Source: Escherichia coli
GTDB lineage: Bacteria > Pseudomonadota > Gammaproteobacteria > Enterobacterales > Enterobacteriaceae
Assembly: GCF_051903065.1 (NCBI RefSeq)
Contig: NZ_CP178438.1
Length of the DNA stretch: 64,000 bases
Strand: one strand, 5' to 3'
Position numbers and translations under genes: made by a program. The notes under the pieces are model-generated. The model was not told where the DNA came from, searched no databases, and was given only the letters and a program-made list of their open reading frames with translations. Every line of letters begins with the position of its first letter. Position 1 is the first letter of the stretch. This document shows positions 28,730 through 29,515 of the stretch, piece after piece.

Positions 28730-28738
28730 GCCGGGACG
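28730..28738. repeat. IS1 target-site duplication, left copy (GCCGGGACG)
   Basis: 9-bp direct repeat flanking the IS1 end. Confidence 0.9.
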
Positions 28739-28753
28739 GGTAATGACTCCAAC

Positions 28754-29257
28754 TTATTGATAGTGTTTTATGTTCAGATAATGCCCGATGACTTTGTCAT
28801 GCAGCTCCACCGATTTTGAGAACGACAGCGACTTCCGTCCCAGCCGTGCCAGGTGCTGCCTCAGATTCAGGTTATGCCGCTCAATTCGCTGCGTATATCG
28901 CTTGCTGATTACGTGCAGCTTTCCCTTCAGGCGGGATTCATACAGCGGACAGCCATCCGTCATCCATATCACCACGTCAAAGGGTGACAGCAGGCTCATA
29001 AGACGCCCCAGCGTCGCCATAGTGCGTTCACCGAATACGTGCGCAACAACCGTCTTCCGGAGCCTGTCATACGCGTAAAACAGCCAGCGCTGGCGCGATT
29101 TAGCCCCGACATAGCCCCACTGTTCGTCCATTTCCGCGCAGACGATGACGTCACTGCCCGGCTGTATGCGCGAGGTTACCGACTGCGGCCTGAGTTTTTT
29201 AAGTGACGTAAAATCGTGTTGAGGCCAACGCCCATAATGCGGGCTGTTGCCCGGCAT
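28754..29257 (-). CDS. insB: IS1 transposase InsB
   Basis: 167-aa [61 protein letters not shown]. Confidence 0.95.
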
Positions 29258-29451
29258 CCAACGCCATTCATGGCCATATCAATGATTTTCTGGTGCGTAC
29301 CGGGTTGAGAAGCGGTGTAAGTGAACTGCAGTTGCCATGTTTTACGGCAGTGAGAGCAGAGATAGCGCTGATGTCCGGCGGTGCTTTTGCCGTTACGCAC
29401 CACCCCGTCAGTAGCTGAACAGGAGGGACAGCTGATAGAAACAGAAGCCAC
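29176..29451 (-). CDS. insA: IS1 InsA (zinc finger and HTH)
   Basis: 91-aa [43 protein letters not shown]. Confidence 0.95.
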
Positions 29452-29506
29452 TGGAGCACCTCAAAAACACCATCATACACTAAATCAGTAAGTTGGCAGC
29501 ATCACC

Positions 29507-29515
29507 GCCGGGACG
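29507..29515. repeat. IS1 target-site duplication, right copy (GCCGGGACG)
   Basis: Identical to 28730-28738. Confidence 0.9.

Follow-up and report, generated by a model that had tools for sequence, protein, structure and literature searches.

What happened to ydbA in a 64,000-nt stretch of Escherichia coli DNA (contig NZ_CP178438.1; the whole stretch is referred to here as the window), where an IS1 element separates two long open reading frames that both resemble parts of one large autotransporter? The locus could record a single transposition into an intact gene, but it could also mark a rearrangement, an assembly error or a gene that still works in pieces. We consider it highly probable that one IS1 element inserted into an intact ydbA, made a 9-bp target duplication and inactivated the gene in an ancestor shared by the lineage. 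None of our results contradicted this reading. The case is an ordinary insertional knockout by IS1; two public genomes already contain it in annotated form, and in this sense it is already known.

A complete IS1 element interrupts ydbA

The element is a complete IS1 of the IS1A type and occupies positions 28739–29506 on the minus strand, inverted relative to ydbA. Its length of 768 bp and its ends were determined by script. The right inverted repeat (IRR, 28739–28761) forms the left end of the element as read in the window, GGTAATGACTCCAACTTATTGAT. The left inverted repeat (IRL) is found at 29484–29506, where the window shows the reverse complement of GGTGATGCTGCCAACTTACTGAT. The two terminal inverted repeats are imperfect, with 18 of 23 positions matching.

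Two reading frames were identified within the element, both on the minus strand. The first, insA (29176–29451), encodes 91 amino acids (aa) with a zinc ribbon and a helix-turn-helix (Pfam Zn_ribbon_InsA and HTH_Tnp_IS1). The second, the insB' frame (28754–29257, 167 aa), encodes the DDE catalytic domain (Pfam DDE_Tnp_IS1, E=1e-76). The Pfam families PF03811, PF12759 and PF03400 all scored far above their cut-offs in these frames. With the NCBIfam model transpos_IS1, the insB' half scored 139.3 bits, above the 100-bit cut-off for the whole protein, and the insA half scored 91.3 bits, just under the cut-off, as expected of a partial protein. The A6C motif (AAAAAAC) of the -1 programmed frameshift lies at 29194–29200 on the minus strand, corresponding to IS1 coordinate 307. 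This motif joins insA to insB' to give the InsAB' transposase (PMC12428005). The hallmarks of IS1 are a length of 768 bp, the production of InsA and, by a -1 frameshift at A6C, of InsAB', a DDE transposase, and a target duplication of 8 or 9 bp (PMC12428005). The element in the window has all of these defining features.

We compared the element with IS1A of E. coli K-12, which has the same length, the same insA/insB' layout with the A6C -1 frameshift and the same 9-bp target duplication. In the alignment, 766 of 768 bases were identical, as were the ends, and the two elements differed only by two substitutions, both in insB' (28949 and 29063). The copy at the same place in ydbA of strain 23CRST027, a close relative described below, is labeled by PGAP as [quoted passage not shown]. 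A preliminary description of the locus had reported a complete 768-bp IS1 at these positions, and the coordinates, the ends, the reading frames and the near identity to K-12 IS1A all uphold this.

The target site is perfectly duplicated and the gene is otherwise intact

The element is flanked by two copies of the 9-bp sequence GCCGGGACG, the left one at 28730–28738 and the right one at 29507–29515 (neither is assigned a strand). Both sequence reading and a script found the copies to be identical, in line with the preliminary description, with exactly 768 bp between them. No further copy of GCCGGGACG was found on either strand of the window. The chance of a 9-mer match at two fixed positions is 4^-9, or approximately 4e-6. 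Other genomes have just one copy of GCCGGGACG at the empty site. The perfect duplication shows that this was a simple insertion and that no recombination between IS1 copies took place there afterwards.

We then examined whether the flanking reading frames could be parts of one gene. The 5' fragment of ydbA (24986–28738, plus strand) comprises codons 1–1251 and encodes a signal-peptide-like N-terminus, PVPPDDGGDT repeats, a BigA_N domain and a beta-helix-type passenger. The 3' fragment (29516–31627, plus strand) comprises codons 1252–1954 and the stop codon, and encodes the remaining passenger, a BigA_beta sandwich domain and the autotransporter beta-barrel. Excising IS1 together with one of the duplicates (777 bp) in silico produced an open reading frame of 5865 nt, encoding 1954 aa, from 24986 to 31627. 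The start at 24986 matches the start of the pseudogene annotated by PGAP in the sister genome 23CRST027. An alternative ATG upstream, at 24947, gives 5904 nt and 1967 aa after excision. The length of both versions is a multiple of three, and both contain one stop codon, at the very end. The preliminary description had expected such an excision to restore a protein of about 1950 aa, and the excision and translation gave a stop-free frame of this size that is colinear with intact alleles. It had also called the insertion in-frame-neutral. This holds arithmetically (777 = 3 × 259) but is uninformative because 768 and 9 are both multiples of three, so that the same is true of every such IS1 insertion, and the ydbA frame itself stops 26 codons into IS1.

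No other lesion was found in the reconstructed gene, which has no internal stops and is colinear with intact proteins of 1942 and 1964 aa. The reconstructed protein aligns end to end with the first of these (WP_195691367.1, from strain Res13-Sevr-PER07-33), and the length differences are confined to one repeat unit and a 3-aa indel. The repeat is a 30-bp tandem repeat within ydbA (25292–25642; 11.8 copies, 90% matching) that encodes the PVPPDDGGDT units in a proline-rich N-terminal spacer. Its copy number varies among alleles, and the Res13-Sevr-PER07-33 allele has one unit fewer. The 100 aa to the left of IS1 correspond to residues 1162–1261 of the 1964-aa protein of strain ET350 with 100% identity, and the 100 aa to the right correspond to residues 1262–1361 with 99% identity, so that the two blocks are exactly adjacent in the intact protein. 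At the nucleotide level, a 53-bp sequence representing the empty site was matched exactly in locus L002 and in the O157 locus L009, and three genomes contained an uninterrupted 800-bp empty site at 100% identity. The comparison with other E. coli alleles, which the preliminary description had suggested as a check, thus agrees with its account. Given the perfect duplication and the uninterrupted sequence of intact alleles at this point, we conclude that the element was acquired by simple insertion into an otherwise intact gene.

A different origin would be an IS1-mediated rearrangement, whether by deletion, by inversion or by recombination of one IS1 copy with another, in which case the two halves of ydbA would not originally have been contiguous. 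IS1 is abundant in this lineage, and 23CRST027 contains another IS1, next to lsrK, with no direct repeat and a truncation beside it, which indicates that events of this type occur in the lineage. At ydbA, however, the two 9-bp copies agree perfectly, and in intact alleles the sequences on either side of IS1 adjoin exactly, in the DNA as well as in the protein. The gene order ydbH-ynbE-ydbL-ydbA-pdxI-ydbD is also the same as in genomes with an intact ydbA. A rearrangement scar was rejected, as the perfect duplication and the contiguous empty site effectively refute it, and we regard this origin as very improbable.

Domain content and predicted fate of YdbA

To characterize the product of the interrupted gene, we analyzed the domains encoded by the two fragments. 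The 5' fragment matched BigA_N (PF25784, E=6e-33), and the 3' fragment matched BigA_beta (PF25783, E=4e-24) and Autotransporter (PF03797, E=2.5e-18). The NCBIfam model auto_BigA matched the 5' fragment partially and the 3' fragment, over the C-terminal 650 aa, with E=3e-245. The N-terminus, MQRKKLLSVCVAMALSSQTWA/AD, was judged by eye to be signal-peptide-like. YdbA and BigA (NCBIfam NF033178) have the BigA_N barrel, the BigA_beta sandwich and the C-terminal autotransporter barrel in common, but YdbA scores far below the 3400-bit whole-protein cut-off of that model and is therefore considered a homologue of BigA and not BigA itself. In the window as in K-12, ydbA is located directly upstream of pdxI-ydbD, which makes the two genes positional orthologues. 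Based on these matches, ydbA is predicted to be a classical (type Va) autotransporter gene of the BigA/YdbA type. The preliminary description referred to the product as an adhesin; YdbA can be called a putative adhesin, a label that derives from homology to BigA-type autotransporters and from family names only. We found no experimental work on the function of YdbA in the literature, which contained incidental mentions only.

As the sequence stands, the ydbA frame enters IS1 and stops at 28819 after 26 IS1-encoded residues, giving a 5' open frame of 1277 aa in total. The first in-frame ATG after IS1 is located at 29636, and the open frame that begins there is 663 aa long. A consensus scan identified a single promoter-like match in the region, inside IRL, on the minus strand and pointing inward. 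This match falls at IRL, the place of the insA promoter. The same scan, which was the only search of this kind, found no outward promoter-like site in the region leading from IS1 into the 3' fragment of ydbA.

These features suggest the following course of events. A single IS1 of the IS1A type most probably transposed into an intact chromosomal ydbA at codon 1251/1252 and made the usual 9-bp target duplication. The upstream frame would then give a passenger fragment of 1277 aa with a putative export signal and no beta-barrel translocator. The downstream fragment would keep the barrel, yet it would lack a signal peptide as well as a promoter-like site directed outward from IS1. In type Va autotransporters, the signal peptide, the passenger and the barrel are needed in one polypeptide. 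Because of this one-chain requirement, neither fragment would be expected to reach the surface. Surface YdbA could presumably not be assembled, and ydbA is probably a pseudogene in the lineage of the window.

The interrupted gene might still be functional if the N-terminal passenger fragment, or a C-terminal barrel fragment initiated internally, were made and used. Each fragment does have a long open frame, of 1277 aa in the 5' fragment and, starting at the ATG at 29636, of 663 aa in the 3' fragment. This is difficult to reconcile with the requirement for a single polypeptide, which is established knowledge for type Va autotransporters, and with a 3' fragment that has no signal peptide and no plus-strand promoter-like site at the end of IS1. 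Both halves are also annotated as pseudogenes. We therefore find it hard to credit that the interrupted gene retains a function. Three points qualify this account. The loss of ydbA function is a prediction from sequence; ydbA may already have been transcriptionally silent; and the IS1 copy in the window, with its open reading frames and ends intact, may no longer encode a fully active transposase.

The insertion is restricted to a small lineage

We searched 5,426 complete E. coli genomes for the interrupted locus. The 1368 bp spanning both junctions were found in full in only 2 of them, 23CRST027 (NZ_AP045789.1) and 23CRST031 (NZ_AP045800.1), both isolated from human faeces in Ecuador. The insertion, the junctions and the duplication in these two genomes are identical to those in the window. 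In the PGAP annotation of these genomes, an IS1A-family transposase lies between two pseudogenes, one "missing C-terminus" and the other "missing N-terminus". The passenger allele type of the window was more widespread and was found in 373 of the 5,426 genomes, mostly of O157:H7 and O55:H7. None of the other 371 genomes of this allele type was found to carry IS1 at the site, as the empty-site query matched in a single place in each.

The window differed from 23CRST027 by only three bases in the 41.4 kb compared (19378, 28949, and 38932), one of which (28949) is inside IS1. The other two are a C/T difference in the intergenic region between nifJ and ydbJ (19378) and a synonymous CTT-to-CTG difference at Leu141 of ynbD (38932). 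With three differences in 41.4 kb, the window comes from a very close relative of 23CRST027 or from a different assembly, rather than from the deposited records of 23CRST027 and 23CRST031 themselves. The insertion would date to a common ancestor of the window strain and the two Ecuadorian human faecal isolates.

The preliminary description had read the duplication as the sign of a clean and probably recent transposition. That the transposition was clean is borne out. The duplication cannot date the insertion, however, because 18 bp would remain unmutated for a very long time. The restricted distribution is more informative: the event is limited to one lineage, and its presence in only 2 of 5,426 genomes is the real evidence that the insertion is relatively recent.

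The distribution also bears on whether the insertion could be an assembly artefact, in which a copy of a repeat was misplaced by the assembler. IS1 is a multi-copy repeat, and the base at 28949 is the same as the variant in another IS1 copy of 23CRST027, which could result from cross-talk during the polishing of repeats. Against this, the same junctions are present in two independent complete assemblies in addition to the window. A sequence that occurs once at the empty site and is duplicated precisely, over 9 bp, around IS1 likewise bears the signature of real transposition and not of mis-joining. An artefact is accordingly a very unlikely source of the insertion.

A rare transposase variant and other IS1 copies

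We next analyzed the two substitutions that distinguish the window copy from K-12 IS1A. At 28949, in insB', the window has A where both 23CRST027 and K-12 IS1A have C. The change replaces Trp with Cys (...MTDG(W>C)PLYE...), two residues beyond the TD motif conserved in the DDE domain. At 29063 (alignment column 325), the second insB' substitution relative to K-12 IS1A gives Arg for Ser as read from the alignment. The Trp-to-Cys variant was found to be rare, occurring in 8 of 8,101 records that contain this segment of IS1, one of which is the other IS1 copy in 23CRST027, adjoining lsrK. The DDE_Tnp_IS1 score was 255.7 bits for the window copy and 260.0 bits for the K-12 copy. This drop of 4.3 bits is not decisive for the effect of Trp-to-Cys because both substitutions contribute to it. 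No residue-level data on this position were found in the IS1 literature. The Trp-to-Cys change bears on the future mobility of the element and not on how it arrived at ydbA.

At the two variable sites, all four possible combinations were observed among four IS1 copies (the window copy, K-12 IS1A, the ydbA copy of 23CRST027 and its lsrK-side copy). The pattern could reflect gene conversion among copies, recurrent mutation or an error in the polishing of repeats.

IS1 was found to be numerous in the lineage of the window, with about 36–37 matching places per genome compared with a median of 10–11. The lsrK-side copy of 23CRST027 is located outside the window, at 1321–2088 of locus L004 (approximately 1911.1–1911.9 kb of NZ_AP045789.1). 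It lies within a second autotransporter pseudogene, adjoining lsrK, which belongs to the ECSE_1600 family and includes an ESPR signal-peptide fragment. No direct repeat was found flanking this copy (TAAGCGGTT on one side and GCACCTGGC on the other), and there is a truncation adjacent to it. The missing direct repeat links the lsrK-side copy to a deletion or to recombination between IS1 copies. One might speculate that the expansion of IS1 to about 36–37 copies has preferentially removed large surface autotransporters (ydbA and the ECSE_1600-family gene) under selection to shed surface antigens in the human gut, with gene conversion among the IS1 copies, although we consider this unlikely.

Other features of the window

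Two further features of the window were noted. Downstream of ydbA, ydbD (32771–35076; DUF2773/bactofilin) is 2306 nt long, which is not a multiple of three, and is annotated as "frameshifted" in the sister genome. The gene is a pseudogene with an internal stop in another strain and is intact in K-12 and ET350. At 60770–62492, between ydcL and ydcO, the annotation of the sister genome indicates an IS200/IS605-type tnpA with an internal stop that adjoins an intact insQ, which encodes a TnpB-family RNA-guided endonuclease.

ydbA has been lost by different lesions in E. coli

We compared the interrupted gene in the window with ydbA in K-12 and in O157:H7. In K-12 MG1655, ydbA (b4492) is the same chromosomal gene upstream of pdxI-ydbD and is also inactivated by insertion sequences. 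In its annotation, IS2D and IS30C divide the gene into three fragments, in agreement with the preliminary description, which named IS2 and IS30 as the insertions in K-12. The lesions differ, as K-12 carries IS2 and IS30 whereas the window carries IS1. The IS2 site in K-12, where the first fragment ends after 839 aa, corresponds to approximately residue 770 of the window allele, compared with 1251/1252 for IS1. Because these sites are far apart, the inactivations are independent, as had been proposed. The K-12 passenger has also strongly diverged, with about 36% amino acid identity over the first part, while the C-terminal part has 88% nucleotide identity. The regions upstream of the gene differ as well. 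In K-12, ydbA is preceded by the paa cluster (immediately by paaX-paaY-ynbG), whereas in the window it directly follows ydbL, with an intergenic region at 24579–24985. The full K-12 block that is absent from the window between ydbL and ydbA is feaR-feaB-tynA-paa.

The ydbA of O157:H7 strain SS52 is of the same passenger allele type as that of the window (approximately 97% nucleotide identity) and has the same target site in its empty form. It differs in that no insertion sequence is present there and the frame is instead interrupted by an in-frame nonsense codon (TFGVC*G, compared with TFGVCQE in the window). This stop, at 6534–6536 of locus L009, replaces a codon that specifies Gln in the window allele, and the gene is annotated as two coding sequences in the same frame. 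The IS1 event is thus independent both of the IS2/IS30 insertions of K-12 and of the O157:H7 nonsense codon. Judging from these alleles, ydbA was probably lost at least three times in E. coli, by different lesions.

For annotation, the results mean that the open reading frames flanking IS1 are halves of one ydbA pseudogene and not separate genes. The insertion could also serve to mark a lineage, namely a small clade of Ecuadorian human isolates. The whole paa-ydbA region is known for its genomic heterogeneity (PMC4951805), and the same survey put the share of phylogroup A genomes with a full-length ydbA at only about 42%. The ydbA::IS1 allele described here would be one more case of the repeated loss of this gene in E. 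coli, in line with those counts.
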